From a virus (Duplodnaviria > Caudoviricetes), in the IMG/VR virus record IMGVR_UViG_3300029267_004155: a stretch of 64,000 bases of DNA; one strand, written 5' to 3'. The position numbers were made by a program, and so were the translations under genes. The stretch's first letter is position 1. Each line of letters begins with the position of its first letter. Under the pieces are notes generated by a model that did no database searches, was not told the DNA's origin, and was given only the letters and a program-made list of their open reading frames with translations. Shown here piece by piece: positions 3,489-15,005 of this stretch.

Positions 3489-4064
3489 ATGGAAAAGGCC
3501 ACTTTGACCGACATACTGGACATGTGGATGATGCGGACGCCGAGGCTTTTCAAGAGCGACGCGACCGCCTTGAGTTTCCTGGAGGCCTGCGCCGGGGTGG
3601 CGCGGGGAGAGGTTGGGCTCGCGCGACCGCCGGAGCTGCTGGCGGCCGGGGGCTTCTCCTCCTCCGGGGTTGACGCTGAGGAGATGAGGAAGGAGCTGGC
3701 CTTCGTGGCCGGAGAAGGAGCGGACGATGACAGACCAGGCGGACCAGGCGGAGTTGACGGCGAGGGAGTCGGAGGACAGGAGGAAGTGGCCGGAGAAGGA
3801 GGCGGAGGACACGAGAAGGTGGCCGCGGAAGGAGCAGGAGGCGGGAGGCCAGGCGGAGCCGAGGGCGAGGGGGTCGGAGGACAGGAGAAGGGGACCGGAG
3901 GACAGGAGAAGGGGGTCGGAGGACAGAGGAAGGGGGGCGAGGGACCAGGGGCCTCCGGGGAACCCTCACGTCCAGCACATGAGGGGCGTGATCCTGGAGA
4001 CGATCCGGGCCGTGCAGAAGGAGAAGCACGACTGCCTGGACTGCTTCCAGGCTTTCGCCCGTAG
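3489..4064 (+). CDS. hypothetical protein (Gly/Glu-rich tail overlaps next ORF)
   Basis: GGAGG RBS downstream of TATAAT at 3468. Confidence 0.45.
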   Translation: MEKATLTDILDMWMMRTPRLFKSDATALSFLEACAGVARGEVGLARPPELLAAGGFSSSGVDAEEMRKELAFVAGEGADDDRPGGPGGVDGEGVGGQEEVAGEGGGGHEKVAAEGAGGGRPGGAEGEGVGGQEKGTGGQEKGVGGQRKGGEGPGASGEPSRPAHEGRDPGDDPGRAEGEARLPGLLPGFRP

Positions 4065-4143
4065 CGCCCGGGACGAGGAGGAGCTCAAGAACGTGATGAA
4101 CGGCATGATGCTGGTGGGGAGGCTGCACAGCAATGACGCCTGA
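3727..4143 (+). CDS. hypothetical protein with EDRRR repeats
   Basis: AAGGAG RBS; 21-nt tandem repeats ~3870-3932. Confidence 0.55.
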   Translation: MTDQADQAELTARESEDRRKWPEKEAEDTRRWPRKEQEAGGQAEPRARGSEDRRRGPEDRRRGSEDRGRGARDQGPPGNPHVQHMRGVILETIRAVQKEKHDCLDCFQAFARSARDEEELKNVMNGMMLVGRLHSNDA

Positions 4144-4351
4144 CGAACAGCTGATCTGCACCCGGTGCGGCGCCGAGATCGAGAGCATGATGGATGTGGG
4201 CTATCTGGGGCCGAGGGACCGGGGCGACAGGAGCTGCCACCCGTTCATGGAGTTCGAGACGGTCTGCCGGGAGTGCGAGGACAAAGGTGCCGAAGGCACG
4301 TCGGGAAAATCCGGCGACGGGGTTGGCAAGTCGGCGCCCGAGGGTGTATAA
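4133..4351 (+). CDS. small zinc-finger protein
   Basis: CTRC...CREC. Confidence 0.55.
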   Translation: MTPDEQLICTRCGAEIESMMDVGYLGPRDRGDRSCHPFMEFETVCRECEDKGAEGTSGKSGDGVGKSAPEGV

Positions 4352-4352
4352 T
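4323..4352 (+). promoter_or_regulatory. sigma70-like promoter for tRNA block 1
   Basis: TTGGCA-N18-TATAAT. Confidence 0.75.
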
Positions 4353-4420
4353 GGGATTTTGGACGACGGGTGAGGGTCCTGGCCAATTCCAGGGCTGGAC
4401 CCCACAAACCGAGAGAGACG

Positions 4421-4510
4421 ATGGACAAGCAGAGTCGCAACCTGATGTTGGCATGTTGTGGGCGGGGATATTCCTCGTTCCGCCTTACGCCTGCGTCCGG
4501 GCTGCGTTGA
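4421..4510 (+). CDS. leader peptide 1 (MDKQSRNLMLACCGRGYSSFRLTPASGLR), putative attenuator
   Basis: Short ORF between promoter and terminator; contains GCGTCCGGG (4493-4501) complementary to terminator 5' arm; codons match block-1 tRNAs. Confidence 0.75.
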   Translation: MDKQSRNLMLACCGRGYSSFRLTPASGLR

Positions 4511-4529
4511 CGCTCGTCGAAGCCCCTAG

Positions 4530-4568
4530 GCCCCCGGACGCGAAAGCCTCCGGGGGTTTTTCTGTTTC
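4530..4568 (+). terminator. intrinsic terminator (attenuator 1)
   Basis: GCCCCCGGA-CGC-GAAA-GCC-TCCGGGGGT followed by T-tract, directly before the first tRNA. Confidence 0.85.
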
Positions 4569-4569
4569 T

Positions 4570-4660
4570 GGAGGGCGACCGGCTGCACGAGGAGCTCGAT
4601 TTGAAATCGGGTAGGCCCTGGAAACGGGGTCTCGGGGTTGGAGTCCCCGGCCCTCCTCCA
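4570..4660 (+). tRNA. tRNA-Ser(TGA), atypical
   Basis: Cloverleaf, long variable arm, CCA; T-loop TTGGAGT, U73. Confidence 0.75.
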
Positions 4661-4669
4661 GGATTGAAA

Positions 4670-4754
4670 GGCCCAGTGGCGGAATTGGCATACGCGCCCG
4701 ATTCAAAATCGGGTCCCTTCGGGGATGGGAGTTCGACTCTCCCCTGGGCTACCA
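4670..4754 (+). tRNA. tRNA-Leu(CAA)
   Basis: Cloverleaf with CCA. Confidence 0.93.
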
Positions 4755-4816
4755 GCAACAAATGGAACGAGATAGCGAGTCCGGGATCGAGAGAAGGAGA
4801 TGATCGACGACGAGAT

Positions 4817-4902
4817 GCGTCGGCTGAGCATTTGGCGAGCTCCCCGGTCTGTAAAATCGGCGCCTTCGGGCTTTGATGGTTCGACTCCATCTCGGCGCAC
4901 CA
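4817..4902 (+). tRNA. tRNA-Tyr(GTA)
   Basis: Cloverleaf, variable arm, CCA. Confidence 0.88.
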
Positions 4903-4915
4903 ACAACTGAACAGT

Positions 4916-5002
4916 GGTCCCGTGCCGGAATTGGCATACGGCCCCGGTTGAGGGCCGGGGGCCCGAGAGGGCGTGGGAGTTCGAGTCTCCCCGGGGTCAC
5001 CA
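4916..5002 (+). tRNA. tRNA-Leu(GAG)
   Basis: Cloverleaf with CCA. Confidence 0.92.
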
Positions 5003-5010
5003 GGAATCAT

Positions 5011-5101
5011 GGAGAGCATCCGGCCGGATGAGGAGCGCGTTTCGAAAGCGCGTAGGTCCCGGGAACGGGGCTTCGGAGTTCGAGTCTCCGGCTCTCCGCC
5101 A
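5011..5101 (+). tRNA. tRNA-Ser(CGA)
   Basis: Cloverleaf, long variable arm, G73-CCA; atypical D-arm. Confidence 0.85.
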
Positions 5102-5199
5102 AGATGTGGACCGGGGCTTCAAACCTCGGTGCAACCCATTAACGTCTTGTGGGGTATGCAAAGGCGTGACTTCGCCGGGTGGAGAGAACCCGGCAACAA

Positions 5200-5285
5200 G
5201 CCCGGGTGGTGGAATTGGCAGACACGCTGCGCTCAGACCGCAGTGCCGAAAGGCGGTGAGGGTTCGACTCCCTCCTCGGGCACCA
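5200..5285 (+). tRNA. tRNA-Leu(CAG)
   Basis: Cloverleaf with CCA. Confidence 0.93.
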
Positions 5286-5294
5286 GATTTAGAC

Positions 5295-5371
5295 GCAGTG
5301 GTAGCTCAGCCAGGTAGAGCTTCCGCCTTCCAAGCGGAAGGTCGCGCGTTCGATTCGCGTCCACTGCACCA
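5295..5371 (+). tRNA. tRNA-Gly(TCC)
   Basis: Cloverleaf with CCA; A73. Confidence 0.92.
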
Positions 5372-5387
5372 TTGATAGGAGGAAGGA

Positions 5388-5564
5388 GTGAGGGCGCCAA
5401 ACTCGGTGATACGCGAGCGACTTGACCGTTGGTGCAAGCCGTGTCGTAAGATGGACGCCAAGGCGATGGTGTGCTTGGTGGAGAGGTGCAACGTCAGACG
5501 AAAGGCGTCGTTGGCAGAAGAGTCGTGCCCGATGGGTTTCTGGGGGAAGTACGAGGAGATTTGA
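5388..5564 (+). CDS. small Cys-rich protein (R..CxxC..C..C..K..CP..W pattern)
   Basis: GGAGGAAGGA RBS, GTG start, 58 aa; absent from the ORF track. Confidence 0.65.
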   Translation: MRAPNSVIRERLDRWCKPCRKMDAKAMVCLVERCNVRRKASLAEESCPMGFWGKYEEI

Positions 5565-5569
5565 ATAGT

Positions 5570-5660
5570 GGAGAGCGTCCGGATGGACGAGGAGTCGGTT
5601 TGCTAAACCGGTAGGCCCTGGAAACGGGGTTTCGGGGTTCGATTCCCCGGCTCTCCGCCA
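5570..5660 (+). tRNA. tRNA-Ser(GCT)
   Basis: Cloverleaf, long variable arm, CCA. Confidence 0.87.
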
Positions 5661-5738
5661 AAGATTGTGTCCCGACCGGTGCTCGGGCTTGGCAGCCCGA
5701 CGGGTCCAAACGCCCGGCCAGAACTGGAAGGGACTTTC

Positions 5739-5815
5739 GGTGAGGTAGCTCAGTCCGGTAGAGCACTCGGTTGAAGCCCGAGGCGTCGTTGGTTCGATTC
5801 CGACTCTCACCACCA
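5739..5815 (+). tRNA. tRNA-Phe(GAA)
   Basis: Cloverleaf with CCA. Confidence 0.93.
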
Positions 5816-5820
5816 ATTTG

Positions 5821-5904
5821 GCCCGAGTGGCGGAATGGCAGACGCGGCCGGTTTAAGTTCGGCTGTCGAAAGGCGTGCAGGTTCGATCCCTGTCTCGGGC
5901 ACCA
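5821..5904 (+). tRNA. tRNA-Leu(TAA)
   Basis: Cloverleaf with CCA. Confidence 0.92.
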
Positions 5905-5906
5905 AG

Positions 5907-5930
5907 GTGTAGCAGTGTAGCAGTGTAGCA
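5907..5930. repeat. tandem repeat (GTGTAGCA)x3
   Basis: Three exact copies in a tRNA spacer. Confidence 0.9.
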
Positions 5931-5942
5931 AAGGAGATTTTT

Positions 5943-6018
5943 GGCGGGGTGGCTGAGAGGTTTAGGCGCGCGGTTGCAACCCGCGTTCATGAGGGTTCGA
6001 GTCCCTCCCCCGTCTCCA
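5943..6018 (+). tRNA. tRNA-Cys(GCA)
   Basis: Cloverleaf, U73, CCA. Confidence 0.92.
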
Positions 6019-6026
6019 TTTTCGAT

Positions 6027-6196
6027 GAGGCCGTCCACCTAATGGCAAGGGCCGGAGCGGAGCGCCGCATAGCCCGTCGAGGCGCAAGCGCGACGGGTGA
6101 CGCCTGCGAGTCCAAAGGGCTGTGACATGGCCAGCCACGCGGGCTGCGGAATGGGCAGGACGCACCGGGATGCGGGTTCGAGTCCCGTCGGCTTCA
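6027..6196 (+). ncRNA. tRNA-like RNA with ~100-nt structured insert replacing the anticodon loop
   Basis: Acceptor GAGGCCG/CGGCTTC, D-loop TAATGGCAA, T-arm GCGGG-TTCGAGT-CCCGT, CCGG/CCGG stem enclosing the insert. Confidence 0.65.
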
Positions 6197-6204
6197 GACT
6201 TTGA

Positions 6205-6295
6205 GGAGAGCATCCGGCTGCATGAGGAGCGCCGTTGGAAACGGCGTCGGTCCGGGAAACCGGGCTTCGGGGTTGGAGTCCCCGGCTCTCCGCCA
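6205..6295 (+). tRNA. tRNA-Ser(GGA), atypical elbow
   Basis: Cloverleaf, long variable arm, CCA; T-loop TTGGAGT. Confidence 0.82.
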
Positions 6296-6327
6296 GTATG
6301 TTAAGGGCAACCCAAAGGAGGTTGCTG

Positions 6328-6993
6328 ATGAAGATCGAGGGCTGTCGGGTGGCCGCGGCGATGGTCGTCTATCACACCTACGGCCTGATGAGGAAGGCGG
6401 TGGCGTCGGTGAGGAGGTTCTATCCGGACATCGACTTCTTCGTGGTGGACAACACCGAGGGGGTCGCTCCGAGGAACGTCAGGAAATGGGCGAAGAGGAA
6501 CCGGGTGAGGCTTATCCGGGTGGGGTCCAACATCGGCCATGGGCCGGGGATGAACGTGGCGCTGTGGGCGACGGAGGCCGACGTGCTGCTGATGCTGGAC
6601 AGCGATACGGAGATGTACGAGCCGAACTTGCTGGAGGACGCCCTGGCGAAGGTCGGGGGCCGGAAGACCAGGTGGTACGGGATAGGGCCGGTCGCGCCGG
6701 TGAAAAGGCCGGTGGGAGGCGAGAAGGTTTCGTACCTTCATTCGTCGACGTGCCTCTTCCATGTCGGGTACTATCGGCGGTTCGAGCCGTTCACGGACCA
6801 CGGGCTTGCGCTGGTGGCGCCGATGTACGAGCTGAGGGTCAAGAGGATGGAGTCGATGCTGGTGGACTTCCCGGTCCAGGACTACGTGCATCACCTCTGG
6901 AGAGGAACCAGGGACTTTTGCAGGGGCCACCAGCTGGACAGGTCTTACGAAAGCCGGAAGTCGGCCTCCTGGTGGGAGCCTGGGAAGTTTTGA
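6328..6993 (+). CDS. glycosyltransferase family 2
   Basis: VVDN, N.GHG.GMN and LDSD motifs; AAGGAGG RBS. Confidence 0.85.
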   Translation: MKIEGCRVAAAMVVYHTYGLMRKAVASVRRFYPDIDFFVVDNTEGVAPRNVRKWAKRNRVRLIRVGSNIGHGPGMNVALWATEADVLLMLDSDTEMYEPNLLEDALAKVGGRKTRWYGIGPVAPVKRPVGGEKVSYLHSSTCLFHVGYYRRFEPFTDHGLALVAPMYELRVKRMESMLVDFPVQDYVHHLWRGTRDFCRGHQLDRSYESRKSASWWEPGKF

Positions 6994-6999
6994 TAATGA

Positions 7000-7077
7000 G
7001 CGCCCGTAGCTCAGTCTGAATAGAGCGCCCCGCTACGGACGGGGAAGTCGCAGGTTTGAATCCTGCCGGGCGTGCCA
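7000..7077 (+). tRNA. tRNA-Arg(ACG)
   Basis: Cloverleaf with CCA; D-loop GA with T-loop TTTGAAT. Confidence 0.88.
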
Positions 7078-7084
7078 ACTTTGA

Positions 7085-7160
7085 GGACCTGTAGTTCAGT
7101 TGGAAGAACATCGGTCTCCGAAGCCGAAGGTCGCGGGTTCGAGTCCCGCCGGGTCCTCCA
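7085..7160 (+). tRNA. tRNA-Arg(CCG)
   Basis: Cloverleaf with CCA. Confidence 0.92.
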
Positions 7161-7167
7161 GAATTAT

Positions 7168-7244
7168 CCGTCTGTAGCTCAGTTGGTTAGAGCGGTCGTC
7201 TCATACGCGACAGGTTGTAGGTTCGATCCCTACCAGACGGACCA
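7168..7244 (+). tRNA. tRNA-Met(CAT), elongator-type
   Basis: Cloverleaf with CCA, paired 1:72. Confidence 0.88.
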
Positions 7245-7347
7245 TCCTCTTTGAAGACGGGCCTCTGGCGGTGTACAATAGGCCAGGAGGTGCGCCGCGA
7301 GGCTTGAGGCGAGGTGACGATCGACGACTACGAGAAGGAGCGGGGCG

Positions 7348-7971
7348 ATGACGGGAGTGCTTGACAGGCGGGTCCTGGTGCTTGACGGCTCGTGGAGGCC
7401 GGTGGACGTGACGAACGTGGTCGGGGCCCTGTGCAAGGTGTGCGCGGGGAAGGCCGACGTCGTCGACAATGACTACTCCCTCTACGGCTTCGAGGAGTGG
7501 GTCGAGAGCTGGTCCGACGCGGCCAGGGCCGCGGAGATGGCCGAGTCGGGGCGCCCCCTCGTGCGTTCCAGGAGCTTCGCCTTCCCGGCGCCGGAGGTCA
7601 TCCGGCTCGTCCGGAAGGTCCGCTTCTGGCGTCGTCGGGCCAAGCTCTGCCGGAAGGCGATCTTCGCCCGCGACCGGAACGTCTGTCAGTACTGCGGCAA
7701 GAAGCTGCCGGCCTCCAAGCTCAACATCGACCACGTGGTCCCCAAGTCCAGGGGTGGAGGCACGACCTGGGAGAACCTGGTTCTCTCGTGCGTGAGGTGC
7801 AACCACAAGAAGGACAGCCGGACGCCCAGGGAGGCGGGCCTGACGCTCCTGAGGGAGCCGAGGGAGCCGCACTGGGCCGTCGTCAACAGGCGTGGCATCC
7901 TGAGGGACCCTCCCAGGTCGTGGGAGGACTTCCTCGGCGCCATGTACTGGGACGTCGAGCTGGAGGGCTGA
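7348..7971 (+). CDS. HNH endonuclease (McrA-like)
   Basis: RDRNVCQYCG...IDHVVPKSRGG...ENLVLSCVRCNHKK. Confidence 0.95.
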   Translation: MTGVLDRRVLVLDGSWRPVDVTNVVGALCKVCAGKADVVDNDYSLYGFEEWVESWSDAARAAEMAESGRPLVRSRSFAFPAPEVIRLVRKVRFWRRRAKLCRKAIFARDRNVCQYCGKKLPASKLNIDHVVPKSRGGGTTWENLVLSCVRCNHKKDSRTPREAGLTLLREPREPHWAVVNRRGILRDPPRSWEDFLGAMYWDVELEG

Positions 7972-8003
7972 CGGGCCGGTTCTCGGAAAAATCTCCGAGG
8001 GGG

Positions 8004-8033
8004 CTGGTAAGACTGGCGTTGACGGCGTATGAT
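8004..8033 (+). promoter_or_regulatory. sigma70-like promoter for tRNA block 2
   Basis: CTGGTA-N18-TATGAT with the GGCG pre -10 context shared by other promoters here. Confidence 0.65.
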
Positions 8034-8048
8034 AATAGGCAAGGAGCA

Positions 8049-8129
8049 ATGTACTCAATGAACCCGATGGCCAGACACGAAGCGATCGAGCAGCCCGCGA
8101 ACGCGGGTGCCGGGGGTGCTGTGTTCTGA
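8049..8129 (+). CDS. leader peptide 2 (MYSMNPMARHEAIEQPANAGAGGAVF), putative attenuator
   Basis: AAGGAG RBS; GGGTGCCGGGGGT (8105-8117) is the perfect 13-nt complement of terminator arm 8147-8159; codons match block-2 tRNAs. Confidence 0.8.
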   Translation: MYSMNPMARHEAIEQPANAGAGGAVF

Positions 8130-8145
8130 CCCTGATAGGTCCAAG

Positions 8146-8186
8146 GACCCCCGGCACCCCGAAAAGGGCGTCGGGGGTTTTTCTTT
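8146..8186 (+). terminator. intrinsic terminator (attenuator 2)
   Basis: GACCCCCGGCACCCC-GAAAA-GGGCGTCGGGGGTT plus T-tract. Confidence 0.85.
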
Positions 8187-8222
8187 GGAGTCGAGAGAAG
8201 GAGGGCGAGTCACGAGCAGGAC

Positions 8223-8300
8223 GGGCCGGTAGCTCAGTTGGCTAAGAGCACCTGACTTGCAATCAGGATGTCCAGGGTTCGATCCCCTGTCGGTCCACCA
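8223..8300 (+). tRNA. tRNA-Ala(TGC)
   Basis: Cloverleaf, G3:U70, CCA. Confidence 0.94.
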
Positions 8301-8311
8301 ACAATTCAGAT

Positions 8312-8389
8312 GCGCCTCGGAGCTCGGTCAGGAAGAGCGCCCGGTCGTGGCCCGGGAGGCCGCGGGTTCGAGTCCCGTCGGGGCGCCCA
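8312..8389 (+). tRNA. tRNA-His(GTG)
   Basis: G-1:C73, CCA; C33. Confidence 0.85.
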
Positions 8390-8398
8390 GGATCATGC

Positions 8399-8476
8399 GG
8401 TGGCGTAGCTTAGTTGGCCGAAAGCGCTGTCCTGTCACGGCAGAGAACGAGGGTTCAAATCCCTTCGTCACCGCCA
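8399..8476 (+). tRNA. tRNA-Asp(GTC)
   Basis: Cloverleaf, G73-CCA. Confidence 0.92.
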
Positions 8477-8483
8477 ATATCAC

Positions 8484-8559
8484 GGCCACGTAGCTCAGCG
8501 GCAGGAGCGTCCGGTCCACACCCGGATGGTCGAAGGTTCGAGTCCTTCCGTGGTCACCA
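8484..8559 (+). tRNA. tRNA-Val(CAC)
   Basis: Cloverleaf with CCA; C33. Confidence 0.87.
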
Positions 8560-8565
8560 GTTCGA

Positions 8566-8639
8566 TGCCCGGTGGTGTAATGGCAGCACAGCTGGTTCTG
8601 GCCCAGTCGGTCAGGGTTCGAGTCCTTGCCGGGCAGCCA
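8566..8639 (+). tRNA. tRNA-Gln(CTG)
   Basis: U1:A72, cloverleaf, CCA. Confidence 0.93.
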
Positions 8640-8647
8640 GATATCGA

Positions 8648-8724
8648 GCGCCCGTAGCTCAGGGGATACGAGCAGCGCACTTCTAATGCGCGGGTCGAAG
8701 GTTCGAATCCTTCCGGGCGTGCCA
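8648..8724 (+). tRNA. tRNA-Arg(TCT)
   Basis: Cloverleaf with CCA. Confidence 0.93.
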
Positions 8725-8726
8725 AT

Positions 8727-8803
8727 GGGCGGTTAGTTCAGATGGCTAGAACGTCAGCTCGACATGCTGAAGGTTGCGAGTTCGAGTCTCGCACCGCCCA
8801 CCA
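8727..8803 (+). tRNA. tRNA-Val(GAC)
   Basis: Cloverleaf with CCA; C33. Confidence 0.88.
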
Positions 8804-8834
8804 TCAGTCAAGGAGAGAGGCGAGAGCAACATGT

Positions 8835-8911
8835 CGGCCCATAGCTCAGTTGGTAAGAGCGAACGGCTGATAACCGTTAGGTCGGAGGTTCGATTCCTCC
8901 TGGGCCGACCA
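8835..8911 (+). tRNA. tRNA-Ile(GAT)
   Basis: Cloverleaf with CCA. Confidence 0.94.
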
Positions 8912-8925
8912 ACAATTGAATATGT

Positions 8926-9000
8926 GTCCCCATCGTCTAGCGGCCAGGATGCGAGGCCCTCAACCTCGTGACGCCGGTTCGAGTCCGGCTGGGGATGCCA
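8926..9000 (+). tRNA. tRNA-Glu(CTC)
   Basis: Cloverleaf with CCA; C33. Confidence 0.9.
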
Positions 9001-9112
9001 GGATTGAGGGCTGCAATATGGCCGGAAAGCAAGTCGCGGGCTTTGCCGAGTTCCAAGACGCGCAGAAGCGGGTAGACGGCAGTCCTGGGGGAGCGGCAAA
9101 CTCCCCCGAACT

Positions 9113-9189
9113 CGGGATGTGGCTCAGTCTGGTAGAGCGTCCGGCTGGGGGCCGGAAGGTCGCAGGTTCGATTCCTGCCATCCCGACCA
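9113..9189 (+). tRNA. tRNA-Pro(GGG)
   Basis: Cloverleaf with CCA. Confidence 0.94.
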
Positions 9190-9199
9190 TAGACTTGAG

Positions 9200-9278
9200 A
9201 GCGGGGTGAATGTCGATTTGGTAAGACGCCAGGCTCATAACCTGGAGCATGTGGGTTCAACTCCCACCCCCGCCACCA
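9200..9278 (+). tRNA. tRNA-fMet(CAT), initiator-type
   Basis: A1xC72 mismatch, CAT anticodon, CCA. Confidence 0.82.
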
Positions 9279-9343
9279 ATATCGGGACGTGACGAGCGGT
9301 TTGACTCCGTCGCCTGAAGCGTGAATGGGCAAGCGTCCCACTT

Positions 9344-9418
9344 GGCCCCATCGTCTAGTGGCAAGGACGTCGGGTTTTCATCCCGGAGACGGGGGTTCGA
9401 TTCCCCCTGGGGCTACCA
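9344..9418 (+). tRNA. tRNA-Glu(TTC)
   Basis: Cloverleaf with CCA. Confidence 0.93.
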
Positions 9419-9426
9419 GTTTTAGA

Positions 9427-9498
9427 TGGCCCGTAGCTCAGCGGTAGAGCATGCGACTCATAATTGCGGGGTCCTCGGTTCAATCCCGAGCGGGCCAA
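9427..9498 (+). tRNA. tRNA-Ile2/Met(CAT)
   Basis: Cloverleaf; anticodon arm GCGA-CTCATAA-TTGC resembles Ile2; ends CTA rather than CCA. Confidence 0.8.
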
Positions 9499-9667
9499 CT
9501 AGTTTTTTGTTGCGATGATGGCCGGTACCGGCGAGGGAAAGTCATCAGATGGGCGCCAACCGGGTATTGCTCGGAAGAAGGCACTGTCGGAAATCGGTGG
9601 TGGGGTGACGTCCGAAGCCGCCGTTCGCCGACGCCCGTTCCGTCTGGCGGCGGCCGCGACATCTTAT

Positions 9668-9744
9668 CGGGATGTGGCTCAGTCTGGTAGAGCGCCTCGT
9701 TCGGGGCGAGGAAGCCGGAGGTTCAAATCCTCTCATCCCGACCA
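9668..9744 (+). tRNA. tRNA-Pro(CGG)
   Basis: Cloverleaf with CCA. Confidence 0.94.
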
Positions 9745-9749
9745 GTTTT

Positions 9750-9826
9750 CGGGCGGTGGCGCAGTTTGGAAGCGCGCGGCGTTTGGGGCGCTGAGGTCGC
9801 CGGTTCGAGCCCGGCCCGCCCGACCA
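9750..9826 (+). tRNA. tRNA-Pro(TGG)
   Basis: Cloverleaf with CCA. Confidence 0.92.
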
Positions 9827-10006
9827 GTCTCGGGATGTGTCCAGACGTGGAGAAACTGGACCGCAAAAACAAAAAACTCTCGCAGTAACGAGACCCGAAA
9901 GGGATAGGAAGTGAGGAAACTGCGTCAACAACACTCGGCCTCCGTAGCTCTGGGCGCTTACACCTACGGACCTTTTCGCAGGCAGGAAGATGGAGGAAGA
10001 CGATTG

Positions 10007-10894
10007 ATGGACCTGATAGTGGAAACCGACATCGGGCACGATCCCGACGACTACTTCACGCTGTGCCACCTGCACGCCGCGGGTGTCAGGATCAGGGCGA
10101 TCCTCGTCTCTCCCGGACACCGGTACCAGGTCGCCATCGCGAGGGCCTTCTGCGCGGAGGTCGGCCTGGATGTCCCTGTCGGGATCGCGAAGGAGACGAG
10201 CGTCGTCAAGACCGGAGGGACGTCGTTCCACATGGCGCTCCTGAGGAAGATGGGACATCCGACCGAGGCGGACCCCGACGGCTTCGGCCACGAGCTTCTG
10301 GGCGGGGTTCTCGAGGACCATCCGGACAGCGACGTCTTCATCTGCGGGCCGGTGAAGAACGTGGGCCGCTACATGATCGAGCATCCGGAGAGGGAGTTCG
10401 GGCGGGTCACGATGCAGGGTGGCTTTCTGGGATACGACCTTCATGGCCATGACGTCGAGAGGCTTCCCAAGTTCAAGGGCAAGGTGGCCGTGCCTACCTT
10501 CAACTTGAACGGGTCGAAGGACGAGGGCTTGTTCCTGGCGTCGCGGGCGAAGGTCGGGGACCTGAGGTTCGTCGGCAAGAACGTCTGTCACACGATCCTG
10601 TACGACAGGGCGAGGCACGAGTGGATGAGGCGCAGGAAGCCTTCCTGCCGGGCGATGGAGCTGTTCATGGAAGGCATGGACCTCTATCTCTACGGGAAGA
10701 GGCACCGGGAGAAGAAGTTCCACGACCCGACCGCTGCCGTGTGCCATCTGCATCCCGAGATCGGGACCTGGGTTGGCGGAAGGTTGTACCGGGAGGGAGG
10801 CTGGTGGGGGACGAAGGTCGAGGAGGGGACGAACACCAGGGTCTTGGCCGATGTTGACCGGGAGGGGCTTTGGGACTTTATCAGAGGGTGTTAG
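10007..10894 (+). CDS. nucleoside hydrolase-like protein (IU-NH fold)
   Basis: ETDIGHDPDD Asp cluster, GPVKN, MQGG, TFN and HDP motifs. Confidence 0.85.
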   Translation: MDLIVETDIGHDPDDYFTLCHLHAAGVRIRAILVSPGHRYQVAIARAFCAEVGLDVPVGIAKETSVVKTGGTSFHMALLRKMGHPTEADPDGFGHELLGGVLEDHPDSDVFICGPVKNVGRYMIEHPEREFGRVTMQGGFLGYDLHGHDVERLPKFKGKVAVPTFNLNGSKDEGLFLASRAKVGDLRFVGKNVCHTILYDRARHEWMRRRKPSCRAMELFMEGMDLYLYGKRHREKKFHDPTAAVCHLHPEIGTWVGGRLYREGGWWGTKVEEGTNTRVLADVDREGLWDFIRGC

Positions 10895-10913
10895 GGCCCG
10901 TCCGGCCATGGAT

Positions 10914-10987
10914 TGCCCCGTGGTGTAATGGCAGCACAAGTGTCTTTGGAGCACTCGGTTCTGGTTCGAGTCCAGGCGGGGCAGCCA
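10914..10987 (+). tRNA. tRNA-Gln(TTG)
   Basis: Cloverleaf with CCA. Confidence 0.93.
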
Positions 10988-11049
10988 TCTCCTGGGCGCG
11001 GGCAGGCCGGGGCCGGCCTCGATCCCCGTCGGAAAAACCGAGAGGTCGC

Positions 11050-11078
11050 TTGGCAAATTCGGGCGAGCGGCGTATAAT
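11050..11078 (+). promoter_or_regulatory. sigma70-like promoter for tRNA block 3
   Basis: TTGGCA-N17-TATAAT. Confidence 0.8.
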
Positions 11079-11102
11079 AAGGCAACGAAAGGCAACTACG
11101 TC

Positions 11103-11186
11103 ATGCTGACGGGAACCACAACGAAAGACAATACCTGGGGCGGCAAGCCCGCCCACGGGGGTCTTTCGCTTGGAGTTCAAGCGTAG
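11103..11186 (+). CDS. leader peptide 3 (MLTGTTTKDNTWGGKPAHGGLSLGVQA), putative attenuator
   Basis: GAAAGG RBS; CGGGGGTCT (11156-11164) complementary to terminator arm AGACCCCCG (11207-11215); codons match block-3 tRNAs. Confidence 0.78.
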   Translation: MLTGTTTKDNTWGGKPAHGGLSLGVQA

Positions 11187-11206
11187 ACGGTGGCGAGCGC
11201 GCTGTG

Positions 11207-11243
11207 AGACCCCCGGCCCGAAAGGGCGCGGGGGTTTTTCTTT
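11207..11243 (+). terminator. intrinsic terminator (attenuator 3)
   Basis: GACCCCCG-GCCC-GAAA-GGGC-G-CGGGGGTT plus T-tract abutting tRNA-Gly. Confidence 0.85.
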
Positions 11244-11319
11244 GCGGCAGTAGCTCAGTCGGAAGAGCACCTGCTTGCCAAGCAGGAGGCCACGGGTTCG
11301 AGCCCCGTCTGTCGCACCA
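11244..11319 (+). tRNA. tRNA-Gly(GCC)
   Basis: Cloverleaf with CCA; A73. Confidence 0.92.
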
Positions 11320-11330
11320 GGTTTCATGAT

Positions 11331-11407
11331 AGGTCCGTAGCTCAATCGGCTAGAGCACCGGTCTCCAAAACCGGCGGTTCTCGGTTCGACCCCGAGCGGG
11401 CCTGCCA
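11331..11407 (+). tRNA. tRNA-Trp(CCA)
   Basis: Cloverleaf, G73-CCA. Confidence 0.93.
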
Positions 11408-11411
11408 AGAA

Positions 11412-11487
11412 CGGCTCGTAGCTCAGTTGGTAGAGCATCCGCCTTTTAAGCGGAACGCCGAGGGTTCGAGTCCCTCCGAGCCGACCA
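11412..11487 (+). tRNA. tRNA-Lys(TTT)
   Basis: Cloverleaf with CCA. Confidence 0.93.
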
Positions 11488-11501
11488 GAAATTCGGAGCG
11501 A

Positions 11502-11540
11502 GTGGAAAACCTTGCTCGTTCGGCAATGTAGGGTGGAGAC
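11502..11540 (+). promoter_or_regulatory. conserved motif copy 1 (GTGGAAAA-N12-GGCAAT..GGG)
   Basis: One of 9 copies with invariant spacing. Confidence 0.75.
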
Positions 11541-11568
11541 GAGGTTCAACAGAAGGAGATGTGATCGA

Positions 11569-11642
11569 GGTTCCGTAGCTTAGAGGTAGAGCGGGCGGCT
11601 CGGACCGCGTGGCCGCAGGTTCGAGCCCTGCCGGGACCTCCA
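11569..11642 (+). ncRNA. tRNA-like RNA with 6-nt anticodon loop
   Basis: Intact acceptor, D and T arms plus CCA; GCGG-CTCGGA-CCGC. Confidence 0.7.
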
Positions 11643-11663
11643 ACTCGACAGGAGAGTCTATTC

Positions 11664-11740
11664 GCACCCGTAGCTCAGTTGGCTAGAGCGGCTGACTCTT
11701 AATCAGCAGGTTCTCGGTTCGAACCCGAGCGGGTGTGCCA
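11664..11740 (+). tRNA. tRNA-Lys(CTT)
   Basis: Cloverleaf with CCA. Confidence 0.94.
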
Positions 11741-11751
11741 ACAATTCAGAT

Positions 11752-11847
11752 GCCGATGTGGTGTAATGGTAGCACACCGGGTAAACCGGAGGTTTTCCTC
11801 GATCAGCGCGCGTAGTCGAGGCGGTTCAAGTCCAGACATCGGCTCCA
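11752..11847 (+). ncRNA. tRNA-like RNA with shortened anticodon arm and a hairpin inserted at the T-stem
   Basis: GCCGATG/CATCGGC-T-CCA, canonical D-arm, CCGG-GTAAA-CCGG, extra CCTCGAT/GTCGAGG hairpin. Confidence 0.7.
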
Positions 11848-11965
11848 ACAACTTAGGCGACACCTGCCTGTCCGAAGAAGGTCCGGCGACGAGCGGGGAC
11901 GAACCCGTGGACGACCAGGCTGGAGGAGAAGTGGTGTGACTCGGGTGAGAGCAGGCCCGCATTAA

Positions 11966-12042
11966 GCCCGGATAGCTCAGTGGCTAAGAGCAGCCGATTC
12001 GTAATCGGCAGGTCGAGGGTTCGAGTCCCTCTCTGGGCTCCA
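11966..12042 (+). tRNA. tRNA-Thr(CGT)
   Basis: Cloverleaf with CCA. Confidence 0.93.
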
Positions 12043-12045
12043 GAC

Positions 12046-12119
12046 TCCCCCATGGTGTAATGGTAGCACGTAGGACTGTTAATCCTTTGGTCCTGGTTCG
12101 AGTCCAGGTGGGGGAACCA
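12046..12119 (+). tRNA. tRNA-Asn(GTT)
   Basis: Cloverleaf with CCA. Confidence 0.92.
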
Positions 12120-12169
12120 ACTCAAGCCGGGTCGACGAGATCGGCCGTCAGGGAAAAGGAGGCAGGGAC

Positions 12170-13612
12170 ATGAAGAGGGAAGAGACGATTCGGAAGCTGT
12201 ACGAGTGCGTTCAGACGCGTCCGCGTCCGGAGGATGTTGCCGAGGTCGTGCTGGAGGCATTGCTTCCGCGGCTGTCGCTGGCCCAGAGGAACGTCTTGAA
12301 GCAGGCGACCAGGATCTCGACGAGGAGCCACCTCCTGGGCTACTCGTCCATGGCCGCGGACTTCCATCGCCCGACGGGCATGGAGAAGCCGGTCAAGGTG
12401 GCGTCCGAGCTCTTCTCCGTTCCGATGCTGTCGGTGGAGGAGTGCCTCGACCCGGAGAGGGTGGAGGTCTTCGTCCAGGGCGTGTCGTCGGCCATCGGCA
12501 AGAGCTACGGGCAGTCCGACTTCCTGAAGCACCGGATGAACCGGGAGCAGCGGGCGCAGGCGGGCCTCGACATGGGGCACCGCGCCTACAACAAGCGCTT
12601 CAGGCTCCTGGGCCGGATGGAGTCCAAGCTCCTGAGGATGGTCCGCGAGCGGAAGAAGTACGTCCTGACCCGGATCGGCAAGAGCGGCTTCGCCGTGGAG
12701 ATCGACTTCGACGACTTCTCCGCCGACCTGGGCACGGCCTGCTTCGTGGCGTACATGAGCGCGAGGATGAGCCTTCGGAGCACCTTCACGAACGACTCCC
12801 AGGTTCGGGCCTTCGACGTGGTGGCCAAGATGCTGTACGACCGCCTGACCAAGTCCAACACGGCCAGGTGGGACGTCGTGGCCGCCGTCTATCCGGTGGA
12901 CAGGGTCCTGAGGCTCCTGACGGACTACCAGAAGGGCGCCATGCTCGCGAGGGCGTGGGGTCTCCTGGAGGACGCGTGCGACCTTCTCACGGAGGTCTGG
13001 GAGGGTTCCGGCGGCGGCATCGACCTGGAGAGGATGGTGGTGCGGCGCGGGTGCGACTCGTCGACGTGGAACCAGTCGGCCGGCGGGTGGAACAAGGCCC
13101 GGGACCACTGGGTGTCGATGCTTCACGCCATGGGCATGGGCTCCATGCTTGAGGCCCTGTGCCCGGGCAAGGTCATGAGGCTGATGGCGGCGGACGTGGT
13201 CCGTTGGCACCTGGCCTCGGGCGGCGACGTCCATCCGGGGACCAAGGTGTGGGCTGAGCTTCCGTACCCGTGGGACGTCGTCGCGGGCAAGGAGCGGTGC
13301 ACGAAGGAGATGGTGGTGGCCGCGTGCGAGAGGCACGGCGTCGAGCCGGCGTCCTGGGTCGGGCCGAGGAGGCGTGCCCGGGCCGTGGAGTTCACGCCGA
13401 CCCCCGAGCTGGTGCACGGCGTCGCCGTGTCGAGCCCGGGACTGGCTCTCGCCCTGCGGAGGGCCGGGGTCTTCTCGGCCAAGGCCCTCAGGGCCGAGCA
13501 TCTCCCGGCCGGCGGCTTCCATGTCGACAGGGACGGCGACGGCTTCGCGCTCGGGGCGACCGACGCGAATTCTCACGGGTCGGGCCGGAAGGTCCGGGCC
13601 GCGGGCGTATAG
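12170..13612 (+). CDS. hypothetical protein embedded in the tRNA array
   Basis: 480 aa, AGGAGG RBS, typical codon usage; no function recognised. Confidence 0.85.
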   Translation: MKREETIRKLYECVQTRPRPEDVAEVVLEALLPRLSLAQRNVLKQATRISTRSHLLGYSSMAADFHRPTGMEKPVKVASELFSVPMLSVEECLDPERVEVFVQGVSSAIGKSYGQSDFLKHRMNREQRAQAGLDMGHRAYNKRFRLLGRMESKLLRMVRERKKYVLTRIGKSGFAVEIDFDDFSADLGTACFVAYMSARMSLRSTFTNDSQVRAFDVVAKMLYDRLTKSNTARWDVVAAVYPVDRVLRLLTDYQKGAMLARAWGLLEDACDLLTEVWEGSGGGIDLERMVVRRGCDSSTWNQSAGGWNKARDHWVSMLHAMGMGSMLEALCPGKVMRLMAADVVRWHLASGGDVHPGTKVWAELPYPWDVVAGKERCTKEMVVAACERHGVEPASWVGPRRRARAVEFTPTPELVHGVAVSSPGLALALRRAGVFSAKALRAEHLPAGGFHVDRDGDGFALGATDANSHGSGRKVRAAGV

Positions 13613-13625
13613 TAGGAGTGGATGC

Positions 13626-13702
13626 AGGTGTGTAGCTCAGTGGTAGAGCGTCCCGGCTCTTTTTCCGGGAGGACGCAGGTTCGAGCCCTGCCTCACCTGC
13701 CA
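13626..13702 (+). ncRNA. tRNA-like RNA with 6-bp stem and 8-nt anticodon loop (copy A)
   Basis: TCCCGG-CTCTTTTT-CCGGGA, canonical D and T arms, GCCA end. Confidence 0.7.
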
Positions 13703-13709
13703 ATCTTGT

Positions 13710-13787
13710 CTCGACGTAGCTCAGTGGTAGAGCGTCCCGGCTCTTTTTCCGGGAGGACGCAGGTTCGAGCCCTGTCGTTCGAGGCCA
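13710..13787 (+). ncRNA. tRNA-like RNA with 8-nt anticodon loop (copy B, different acceptor stem)
   Basis: 59-nt exact repeat of copy A body (13632-13690 = 13716-13774); bulged acceptor, GCCA end. Confidence 0.65.
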
Positions 13788-13895
13788 TTTGGTTTTCGAC
13801 CCCTGTCGGTTCGACTCCGACGTCCGGCTCCTATACTAGTTGCACGGGAGGCGGCCACACCGGTTGGAAGGGTGGGCCCGGGGGTCTTTCTTGAC

Positions 13896-13965
13896 GTCCC
13901 CGGCTCAATGGAGAGCTGGGCACTTGTGGCGCCCAGACGCCAGTTCGATTCTGGCAGGGGCTCCA
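13896..13965 (+). pseudogene. degenerate compact tRNA-like element
   Basis: T-arm GCCAG-TTCGATT-CTGGC, TCCA end, shortened acceptor/D linker; anticodon ambiguous (TGT or GTG). Confidence 0.55.
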
Positions 13966-14138
13966 TCCTCCGTTCCGCGTCCCTGGTCCGAGCCCGAGGG
14001 CAGGCCGCGTCTTTCTTCTCCTCCTTGGCGGCGTATAATCCCATGACGAATCATGGAGGGCGCTGACGACGTAGAATGGGATGGAGAGCTTTGCGGACTG
14101 GTGGCGGTAGCCAGAGAGCGAGAACAAGGAGATGCGAG

Positions 14139-14354
14139 ATGATCTATCGGGGCAAATGGTTCACGGTGAGGGTCGAGGAGCTGGCGGAGGTTGGCGTCTC
14201 GACGTCGCAGGGGAACAAGGGTGAGGTCGTGCGCGGGCTGCACGTGACGCACAGGTCGGGGACGCAGAACCGGACGTCTTACGCCGACGAGGCGGAGCTC
14301 ATGAGGGACTACGAGGGGCTCGCCGCGGCCATGGAGAAGGTGGACGACAAGTAG
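14139..14354 (+). CDS. hypothetical protein
   Basis: AAGGAG RBS; TATAAT at 14034. Confidence 0.65.
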   Translation: MIYRGKWFTVRVEELAEVGVSTSQGNKGEVVRGLHVTHRSGTQNRTSYADEAELMRDYEGLAAAMEKVDDK

Positions 14355-14366
14355 GAGGGGAGAGCC

Positions 14367-15005
14367 ATGTTCGACGGAGTCAAGCTGTCGAAGAAGTTCC
14401 TGTCCAGGCGAGACACGTTCTTCGTGTCGCCGTCCTGGTTCGGCTGTGGGCACTGGGCGGTCCGGAGGGAGATGCTTCTTTCCCCGGACCTTTCCGGCCT
14501 GGGAGCTGGCGGGGTGGAGCTGACGACGGGCGAGATTGCCACGAAGCTCGGCCTCGAGCCTTACAGGGCGCAGTGGCATTGGAGGGAGGACGACATGTTC
14601 GAGGCCATGCTCTGCCCGGAGCCGGACGGTGCCGAGAGGTTCCGCCGGCAGGAGTGGGTGAAGGTGGGCTGCGACTCGGGTCGGAATGTCGACTCGGTCC
14701 TGTTCCAGGGGGATGACTCGGGGACCCCGTGCTTCATCGACAGGGACTTCGTCCAGACGTTCGACGTCGACGAGCTCGTGATGGGCGCCGGCGGGAAGGT
14801 CGCGATGCACGATCCGGAAAGGCGCGTCGTCATCGCCAGGAGGGTCGGGGACCTTCCGCGCGTGATGGTGACGAAGGATCGGGTCATCCGGGAGGAGGAC
14901 CTGATGGCGGCGGTCCGGGACGCGTGCGCCGAAGCGAAGCTCGATCCGGGTGTCGGTGGCCAGCTCTCGTATGCGATCGGCAGGAGGATAGGGGTGGCGG
15001 TGTGA
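14367..15005 (+). CDS. hypothetical protein
   Basis: 212 aa with RBS. Confidence 0.75.
   Translation: MFDGVKLSKKFLSRRDTFFVSPSWFGCGHWAVRREMLLSPDLSGLGAGGVELTTGEIATKLGLEPYRAQWHWREDDMFEAMLCPEPDGAERFRRQEWVKVGCDSGRNVDSVLFQGDDSGTPCFIDRDFVQTFDVDELVMGAGGKVAMHDPERRVVIARRVGDLPRVMVTKDRVIREEDLMAAVRDACAEAKLDPGVGGQLSYAIGRRIGVAV

Follow-up and report, generated by a model that had tools for sequence, protein, structure and literature searches.

Three tRNA blocks, each preceded by a promoter, a leader ORF and a terminator

The window analysed here, a stretch of 64,000 nucleotides of the IMG/VR virus record IMGVR_UViG_3300029267_004155 (Duplodnaviria; Caudoviricetes), carries 36 tRNA genes called by ARAGORN between 4670 and 12119, to which Rfam alone adds a Ser-TGA (4569-4657) and a third CAT tRNA (9203-9275). 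These genes form three blocks that together cover all 20 amino acids, and one cassette, composed of a promoter, a short leader open reading frame (ORF; L1, L2 and L3 in cassettes 1, 2 and 3) and an intrinsic terminator, lies ahead of each block (Table 1). The codons of each leader match the tRNAs of the block that follows it, and the late part of each leader ORF is complementary to the 5' arm of its own terminator, suggesting that the three cassettes, which are paralogous, are probably ribosome-mediated (leader-peptide) attenuators tying transcription of each tRNA block to the decoding speed of the matched codons.

Table 1. Positions of the cassette elements, the tRNA blocks and the adjoining 480-amino-acid (480-aa) protein gene in the window. 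Segment 2 is the antiterminator strand; p values are from shuffles.
Feature	Position	Strand	Description
Promoter, cassette 1	4323-4352	+	TTGGCA-N18-TATAAT; 11/12 of sigma-70 consensus; inferred start ~4360
Leader ORF 1 (L1)	4421-4510	+	29 aa, ATG start
Segment 2, cassette 1	4493-4501	+	9-bp perfect complement of 4533-4541; p 0.007
Intrinsic terminator 1	4531-4563	+	8-bp G+C stem 4531-4538/4549-4556, then TTTTTCT
tRNA block 1	4569-7244	+	ARAGORN, Rfam; Ser-TGA, Leu-CAA, Tyr, Leu-GAG, Ser-CGA, Leu-CAG, Gly-TCC, Ser-GCT, Phe, Leu-TAA, Cys, glycosyltransferase-like gene, Arg-ACG, Arg-CCG, Met-CAT
Promoter, cassette 2	8004-8033	+	CTGGTA-N18-TATGAT, weaker; found by alignment with cassettes 1 and 3; inferred start ~8040
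Leader ORF 2 (L2)	8049-8129	+	26 aa, ATG start; alternative ATG at 8058
Segment 2, cassette 2	8105-8117	+	13-bp complement of 8147-8159; p <2e-4
Intrinsic terminator 2	8143-8186	+	G+C-rich stem, then TTTTTCT
tRNA block 2	8223-10987	+	ARAGORN, Rfam; Ala, His, Asp, Val, Gln-CTG, Arg-TCT, Val, Ile, Glu-CTC, Pro-GGG, CAT, Glu-TTC, Met, Pro-CGG, Pro-TGG, nucleoside-hydrolase-like gene (9911-10894), Gln-TTG
Promoter, cassette 3	11050-11078	+	TTGGCA-N17-TATAAT; 11/12 of sigma-70 consensus; inferred start ~11085
Leader ORF 3 (L3)	11103-11186	+	27 aa, ATG start
Segment 2, cassette 3	11149-11168	+	pairs with segment 1 or, via 11156-11164, with terminator arm 11207-11215 (9 bp; p 0.011)
Intrinsic terminator 3	11206-11243	+	G+C-rich stem, then TTTTTCT; T-run abuts tRNA-Gly
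tRNA block 3	11244-12119	+	ARAGORN, Rfam; Gly-GCC, Trp, Lys-TTT, odd tRNA (6-nt anticodon loop), Lys-CTT, doubtful Ser-GGA, Thr-CGT, Asn
480-aa protein gene	12170-13612		no Pfam, PHROG or PDB sequence match

The window has a G+C content of 60-69% and a strongly positive GC skew, and its genuine genes, all on the + strand with a G+C content at third codon positions (GC3) of ~0.8-0.95, include phage-type genes for an NAD-dependent DNA ligase, CobT/CobS-like proteins and an HNH endonuclease. Since a protein encoded in the window was found letter-identical on contigs from ENA, JGI and Logan that reach 298,395 bp, and since the DNA runs carrying the stretch are sediment and seawater metagenomes, the source is an uncultured phage of roughly 298 kb.

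The original prediction had placed a promoter, an ATG-initiated ORF of 26-29 codons and a strong intrinsic terminator before each of the three tRNA blocks, an arrangement that is confirmed here. The GGCGTATAAT-type -10 box is found 11 times in the window against 0.4 expected, mostly directly 5' of ordinary genes, and its recurrence indicates that the cassette promoters are normal promoters of this phage; in the 64-kb window, ordinary genes come directly after promoters of this type. Between the inferred transcription start and the terminator, the leader is the sole ATG ORF in 3/3 cassettes, and in cassette 2 the 5' untranslated region measured from the inferred start is just ~8 nt long. The L1, L2 and L3 peptides have no sequence in common, only their length and design. 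All three terminators are closed by an identical CGGGGGTTTTTCT (4551, 8172 and 11229), a motif matched 7 times across the window where 1.0 match would be expected, whose exact copies are confined to the three tRNA-block terminators; the distance from the terminator T-run to the first tRNA is 5, 36 and 2 nt in cassettes 1, 2 and 3, respectively. A cmscan search of 3500-14500 against Rfam (E<=1) returned only tRNAs and sub-threshold chance hits, with nothing above threshold in the leaders; NsiR1 (8127-8184, E 0.47) and isrK (4298-4360, E 0.42) are among these sub-threshold matches and were rejected.

Leader codons match the tRNAs of their own block

The original prediction also held that leader codons correspond to the tRNAs of their own block, but the codon strings and tRNA lists quoted for this were selective. 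The strings for L1 and L3 were given as if contiguous, skipping AAC, GCA and CGC in L1 and GAC, ACC and others in L3; L2 was quoted as ATG CCG AGA, the actual sequence being CCG ATG GCC AGA (with GCC given as CCG); four Ser tRNAs were listed for block 1, where three are counted; and Asp and two Val tRNAs (block 2), together with Ser-GGA and the odd tRNA with a 6-nt loop (block 3), were omitted. For this reason, every leader codon, start and stop excluded, was scored against every tRNA under standard wobble rules and without selection. The correspondence itself withstood this unbiased treatment.

Blocks 1, 2 and 3 can decode 18, 6 and 5 of the 28 codons of L1, respectively; the corresponding counts are 6, 14 and 4 for L2 and 7, 6 and 9 for L3, i.e., each leader is read best by its own block. 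At the level of amino acids, the matches to blocks 1, 2 and 3 are 20/10/10 for L1, 9/17/6 for L2 and 10/7/16 for L3. In total, 41 of 79 codons are decodable by the own block, as opposed to 27.5±3.8 when tRNAs are shuffled among blocks (16 of 100,000 shuffles reach 41), 24.7±4.2 when isoacceptor families are shuffled as units (0 of 100,000) and 25.1±4.0 when codons are re-dealt among the leaders (7 of 100,000). Permutation of leader codons against own and other blocks, which the original prediction had put forward as a check, thus places the own-block match at p ~1e-4 to <1e-5, well away from the level of shuffled blocks. The true assignment of leaders to blocks also tops all six possible pairings (41 against 17-28), and the +1 and +2 frames of the leader DNA show no own-block preference. 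Seen from the tRNAs, the own leader contains a cognate codon for 34 of 37, compared with an expectation of 22.7±2.5 (0 of 100,000 shuffles), including all 14 of the tRNAs of block 1 (14/14, read by hand from the codon table). The match is robust (p 5e-5 to 2e-3) to strict Watson-Crick or extended wobble pairing, to a start of L2 at 8058, and to a conservative tRNA set from which Rfam-only calls, the doubtful Ser-GGA and the tRNAs behind intervening genes were dropped; both tRNA-like genes with abnormal loops in block 3 were likewise excluded from this set.

The matched codons are concentrated in the 5' two-thirds of each leader ORF. Most of codons 5-22 of L1 (S R N L M L A C C G R G Y S S F R L) can be decoded by block 1, all of the amino acids in the L2 run P M A R H E A I E Q P A (12/12) are carried by block 2 tRNAs, and 12 of the 13 in the L3 run T G T T T K D N T W G G K are carried by block 3 tRNAs. 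Where an amino acid is repeated, different synonymous codons, and with them different isoacceptors, are used (TTG/CTG/CTT for Leu, CCG/CCC for Pro, GAA/GAG for Glu and AAA/AAG for Lys). Leader codons are often rare in the genes of the phage (AGT 2%, AGA 4%, AAA 4%, GAA 7%, TTG 7% and GGA 8%), and GC3 is 0.62-0.76 in the leaders versus 0.89 in the genes.

Each leader is predicted to form alternative helices

The complements of 9, 13 and 9 bp between the late part of each leader and the 5' arm of its terminator, a further element of the original prediction, were recovered at exactly the same positions (Table 1). Dinucleotide shuffles of the ORF equal or beat them in 37, 0 and 55 of 5000 cases in cassettes 1, 2 and 3, respectively. 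The longest complement to the own terminator arm (9, 13 and 9 bp) compares with 5-9 bp to the arms of the other cassettes, and this specificity implies that segment 2 has followed the cassette-specific part of its own terminator.

The leaders fold better than shuffled sequences (z -3.1, -2.6 and -4.6), with the terminator present in the minimum-energy fold. A helix between segments 1 and 2 (1:2) is predicted at 4436-4452/4489-4506 in cassette 1 and, in cassette 3, between segment 1 at 11122-11143 (ACG AAA GAC AAT ACC TGG GGC GGC, within the matched run of L3) and 11149-11168; in cassette 2 it is split into pairing of the 5' end (8043-8056/8114-8127) and a small hairpin (8090-8098/8103-8110). 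These predicted 1:2 helices overlap the codon-matched zone, the matched codons lying in or before segment 1. Approximate duplex energies for the 1:2, 2:3 and 3:4 helices are -21, -23 and -24 kcal/mol in cassette 1, -18, -37 and -29 in cassette 2, and -31, -23 and -28 in cassette 3.

When a stalled ribosome is modelled as a 30-nt unpaired mask, the terminator 5' arm is predicted to pair upstream, as long as segment 4 has not been made, for stalls at codons 2-24 of L1, 2-18 of L2 and 3-17 of L3, and in the same model it no longer does so once the ribosome has reached the final codons of L1 and L2. For stalls at codons 2-11 of cassette 2, the antiterminator is favoured even at equilibrium in the full-length RNA, its duplex being predicted at -36.5 kcal/mol versus -28.5 kcal/mol for the terminator. 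In these folding models the four segments are arranged as in classical attenuation, the matched codons being placed such that a stall would free segment 2.

Matched leaders recur in other phages

The same layout is found in the Caulobacter phage phiCbK (JX100813), whose record's own annotation puts terminators directly before tRNA groups. There, gp083, a 45-aa ORF rich in S, L, A, P and K, precedes a Pro/Lys/Leu/Ala/Ser array, and a Phe/Val/Ile/Gln/Gly array lies behind a 32-aa ORF that includes the stretch Q F V R Q I Q V V R N I. Together, these two leaders have 34 of 75 codons decodable by their own block against 19.4±4.5 expected (24 of 100,000); leader C of phiCbK appears leaderless. The leader is kept in CcrRogue and CcrBL10, where Thr and His tRNAs of the arrays, missing from phiCbK, account for the Thr and His codons that have no match there. 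The far more distant CcrColossus has a 39-aa leader of different sequence and the same composition before a Pro/Lys/Leu/His/Ala/Ser array. Strict co-variation of leaders and anticodons, for which the original prediction had proposed a survey, is not seen at short range in the phiCbK group: CcrRogue lacks Ser tRNAs and retains the Ser codons. The phiCbK genome paper is silent on attenuation, and the Rfam search reported there found no RNA element besides tRNAs (PMC3556154).

A second case comes from an IMG/VR contig of 329.8 kb and 36% G+C (L152), which shares the 480-aa gene of the window at 45% identity. Here, a leader with nine consecutive codons CGC CGA CCC CAG CCG CAA CAA CCA CGG is followed by a terminator and by an array of only Pro, Gln and Arg tRNAs, every isoacceptor of which is sampled; a second leader (D M R Q V T C A A T T I R N G A T) lies before a Met/Thr/Ile/Ala/Asp/Arg/Val array that reads 12 of its 17 codons. 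Recurrence in phages of very different composition and ancestry favours function over chance.

Contigs with the identical 480-aa protein are 100% identical over 4200-12200, i.e., they show no microdiversity. Three DNA runs contain a small part of the stretch; in two of them the pieces listed show no difference from the window, while the third (sediment) contains a strain ~3% diverged over leader 1 (5 differences in 145 nt). Among the sequencing runs listed as carrying the stretch there is no RNA run, a blank that is not evidence either way. No near relative is present among 50,697 deposited phage records (megablast and tblastn), and distant blastn searches returned only generic tRNA similarity. 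No IMG/VR relative was detected for a 404-aa ATPase by the method used, and for the CobT-like relatives (41-54% identity), the contigs available as DNA have no tRNAs in reach. Scanning IMG/VR for the terminator pattern returned generic terminators only, none with a tRNA array directly downstream. In the Stenotrophomonas phage RAS14 tRNAs are interleaved with genes, with no comparable cassettes, and a 254-kb contig (L139) whose 480-aa gene is 51% identical has scattered tRNAs and, on a quick look, no convincing matched leader.

Neighbouring genes and unusual tRNA-like elements

Two tRNA-like genes of block 3 are abnormal: that at 11569-11642 has a 6-nt anticodon loop, for which ARAGORN gives the 2-base anticodon 'cg', and the 'Ser-GGA' at 11752-11847 is 96 nt long, with an abnormal anticodon loop and an Rfam tRNA score of 30.8 bits against a threshold of 29. 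In block 1, a tRNA-like scaffold at 6019-6240, located between tRNA-Cys and the glycosyltransferase-like gene and called by neither ARAGORN nor Rfam, combines a T-arm (GGTTCGAGTCC) and a matching acceptor end with a structured insert of ~100 nt. Block 1 and cassette 2 are separated by an HNH endonuclease gene (7348-7971), which is preceded by a separate promoter-like site (7251-7279) and may be a mobile insertion in the tRNA island. The nucleoside-hydrolase-like gene of block 2 shows a weak IU_nuc_hydro match under the Pfam cut-off, and none of its homologues in IMG/VR and JGI metagenomes adjoins tRNAs.

The 480-aa protein has a confident, mostly helical AlphaFold model (pLDDT 87, pTM 0.84), for which structural comparison gave no clear match (best Z 6.6). 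At almost all of the homologous loci retrieved (window 12170-13787, L139, L141, L143, L019, L152-L158, L160 and L164-L166), its gene is adjoined by a conserved tRNA-like gene whose anticodon loop has 8 nt (consensus GGCTCT-NNNN-CCG); this tRNA-like gene has conserved D and T arms and variable acceptor stems. Judging from these loci, the 480-aa protein and the odd tRNA-like gene are a conserved pair. The window has two copies of the latter (13626-13702 and 13709-13787), which have their own GGCGTATAGT box and no leader.

A proposed feedback on tRNA supply

In each cassette we find an ORF, a terminator, an antiterminator, a predicted 1:2 helix and a codon correspondence, i.e., every structural hallmark of a leader-peptide attenuator that was looked for other than a clear ribosome-binding signal; the match passes permutation and frame controls and recurs in unrelated phages, so that the attenuation proposed in the original prediction is supported. 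From this anatomy, the codon statistics and the predicted folds, we infer that the leaders are translated, that RNA polymerase is coupled to the ribosome behind it and that a physiological trigger acts on decoding.

In the proposed mechanism, RNA polymerase would initiate at the cassette promoter and a ribosome would load on the leader. If all sampled codons were decoded promptly, the ribosome would stay close behind and either cover segment 2 or let the 1:2 helix re-form; with segment 2 occupied, the terminator would form and the tRNA block would remain untranscribed. If any sampled codon were slow—its cognate charged tRNA being scarce, rare in the host, decayed in infection or cleaved—the ribosome would stall in or before segment 1, segment 2 would pair with the terminator 5' arm, and the polymerase would enter the tRNA genes. 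Because the products are the very tRNAs that relieve the stall, newly made tRNAs would lift it, a negative feedback acting as an OR-gate over ~7-16 isoacceptors per block, and the three leaders would jointly partition all 20 amino acids.

Several observations weigh against this interpretation. Shine-Dalgarno (SD) signals are weak, with GAGAG for L1 and GAAAGG for L3 versus AAGGAGG ~6-8 nt from the start in phage genes, while the AAGGAG of L2 is 2 nt from the ATG at 8049 or 11 nt from that at 8058. The full-length RNA of cassette 1 adopts the terminator at equilibrium for every stall position, and that of cassette 3 mostly does so, with the antiterminator only at codons 7, 9-11 and 13; the preference of the antiterminator after a stall is accordingly seen before segment 4 is made in all three cassettes but fails at full-length equilibrium in cassette 1 and most of cassette 3, and the switch in these two would therefore be mostly kinetic, as in trp. 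The codon match is incomplete, since 38 of 79 leader codons, chiefly those in the helix-forming 3' tails, are not read by the own block, and the leaders contain no codon for Asp-GTC, Val-GAC or Ser-GGA of their blocks. A single codon samples most of the tRNAs, where classical leaders use runs, and the sensitivity for each tRNA may therefore be low. A weak promoter-like motif (GGAAAACC and TTGCTC, then TAGGGT; 11488-11568) is present inside block 3, 5' of the odd tRNA at 11569, and if this motif (about 11500-11530) were active, part of block 3 could escape attenuator 3. Finally, no diverged relative with readable tRNA arrays was found that would allow the ORFs and helices to be compared by covariation within the lineage.

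The weakness of the SD signals in L1 and L3 and the equilibrium preference for the terminator, always in cassette 1 and mostly in cassette 3, could also be accommodated if the terminators were overcome by a protein or an RNA, as with lambda Q at PR'-tR' or the HK022 put RNA, or by a timed factor, such that the blocks are turned on at a set stage of infection and the ORFs are incidental. A constitutive promoter with a strong terminator ~150-200 nt further on and the regulated genes behind it is indeed the layout of the lambdoid late operon too. This explanation is nonetheless unlikely, as it accounts neither for a codon/tRNA match that is specific to frame and block, nor for a segment 2 that lies inside the ORF with cassette-specific complementarity, nor for the recurrence of matched leaders in unrelated phages; moreover, no known antitermination RNA family matched the region in Rfam, although the window covers 64 kb of the ~298-kb genome and no search for a Q-like gene was made. 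The same match and the built-in antiterminator are left unexplained if the short terminated transcripts are themselves the products, as small RNAs or micropeptide mRNAs, with the tRNAs arising through leaky read-through or other promoters. Each unit does amount to a full transcript of ~150-200 nt from promoter to terminator with significant structure, and the promoter-like motif within block 3 could be one such promoter. Yet no strong promoter separates the first tRNA of any block from its terminator, the T-runs of cassettes 1 and 3 directly adjoin the tRNA, the three peptides share length and design rather than sequence, and no Rfam small-RNA family scores above threshold, which makes this alternative quite improbable.

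Chance correspondence in G+C-rich sequence beside ordinary terminators, suggested by the selective choice of codons and tRNAs in the original prediction and by the 48% of leader codons without an own-block match, is very unlikely indeed given the permutation and shuffle probabilities of the codon match and of the complements, a signal that is specific to the frame, and its independent reproduction in phiCbK (p 2.4e-4). None of these alternatives explains the frame-specific and block-specific codon match, and leader-peptide attenuation remains the probable explanation of the three cassettes.

The reason for which large phages carry tRNA arrays, and the way in which these arrays are expressed, are debated; the proposals are compensation for codon usage, replacement of degraded host tRNAs and escape from anticodon nucleases. 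For the attenuators proposed here, candidate triggers are starvation, anticodon nucleases, the loss of host tRNAs and a host supply that is poor for rare codons. Cleavage by nucleases such as PrrC, VapC and PARIS would be compatible with the sequence data, but poor supply for rare codons or the decay of host tRNAs in the course of infection would serve just as well, and a simple feedback on tRNA supply is the more economical version. A broader reading, in which multi-codon attenuators are a general control of phage tRNA arrays, each array being made on demand via an OR-gate over its isoacceptors, and in which the three sensors of this phage watch all 20 amino acids, such that lost host tRNAs are replaced, also after nuclease cleavage, is possible but rather doubtful; if true, the leaders would serve the phage as an inbuilt alarm for defences that target tRNAs. 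If attenuation operates as proposed, the phage would measure decoding speed directly and make tRNAs on demand, and a classical bacterial control of amino-acid supply would have become a feedback loop on the translation machinery. For annotation, the signature would be a small ORF mirroring the anticodons downstream, followed by a terminator with a built-in antiterminator, and the leader would predict which tRNAs are co-transcribed. phiCbK on Caulobacter would provide a cultured system for a direct test.

Comparison with known regulatory systems

In trp-type attenuators, a ribosome stall selects the antiterminator, and the multivalent ilv and thr leaders sample several amino acids. The cassettes resemble trpL, hisL, leuL, thrL, ilvL and pheL of enterobacteria in having a short leader ORF, mutually exclusive 1:2, 2:3 and 3:4 helices, and regulatory codons in or before segment 1, with no sequence homology to known leaders (no match to an Rfam leader family). 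They differ in that the regulated genes are tRNAs rather than enzymes, so that the product would directly relieve the stall, in sampling 7-16 isoacceptors, mostly once each and with spread synonymous codons instead of single-codon runs, and in being phage-borne, with three paralogous cassettes partitioning the 20 amino acids. The pheM leader of pheST in E. coli is also a leader-peptide attenuator for a component of the translation apparatus that responds to decoding of cognate codons; unlike the present cassettes, pheST is chromosomal, controls a synthetase and senses one amino acid via a Phe run.

T-box riboswitches likewise couple tRNA status to read-through via a terminator and an antiterminator upstream of translation-related genes, but they sense one tRNA, whose uncharged form they bind directly by means of a specifier codon and the conserved T-box sequence, and without a ribosome. 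Identity with a T-box was rejected, there being no T-box match in the cmscan search of 3500-14500 (E<=1) and the leaders being too short. As in lambda PR'-tR'/Q and HK022 put, a phage promoter is followed by a nearby terminator that has to be overcome for the genes downstream; those systems, in contrast, modify RNA polymerase via a protein or the nascent RNA and have no translated, codon-matched leader. The phiCbK-like phages and L152 share the layout and the own-array codon match, while their leaders have no detectable sequence relation to those of the window and their tRNA sets and G+C contents differ (66% and 36%, respectively).

The original prediction knew of no prior description of such attenuators, and none was found here for leader-peptide attenuation of tRNA genes or of phage tRNA arrays in the full-text literature searched, whose coverage leaves out most subscription journals. 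The attenuator mechanism itself is known, and what is probably new is its application to tRNA genes, the sampling of many isoacceptors mostly once each, and its occurrence in phage-borne paralogous sets.

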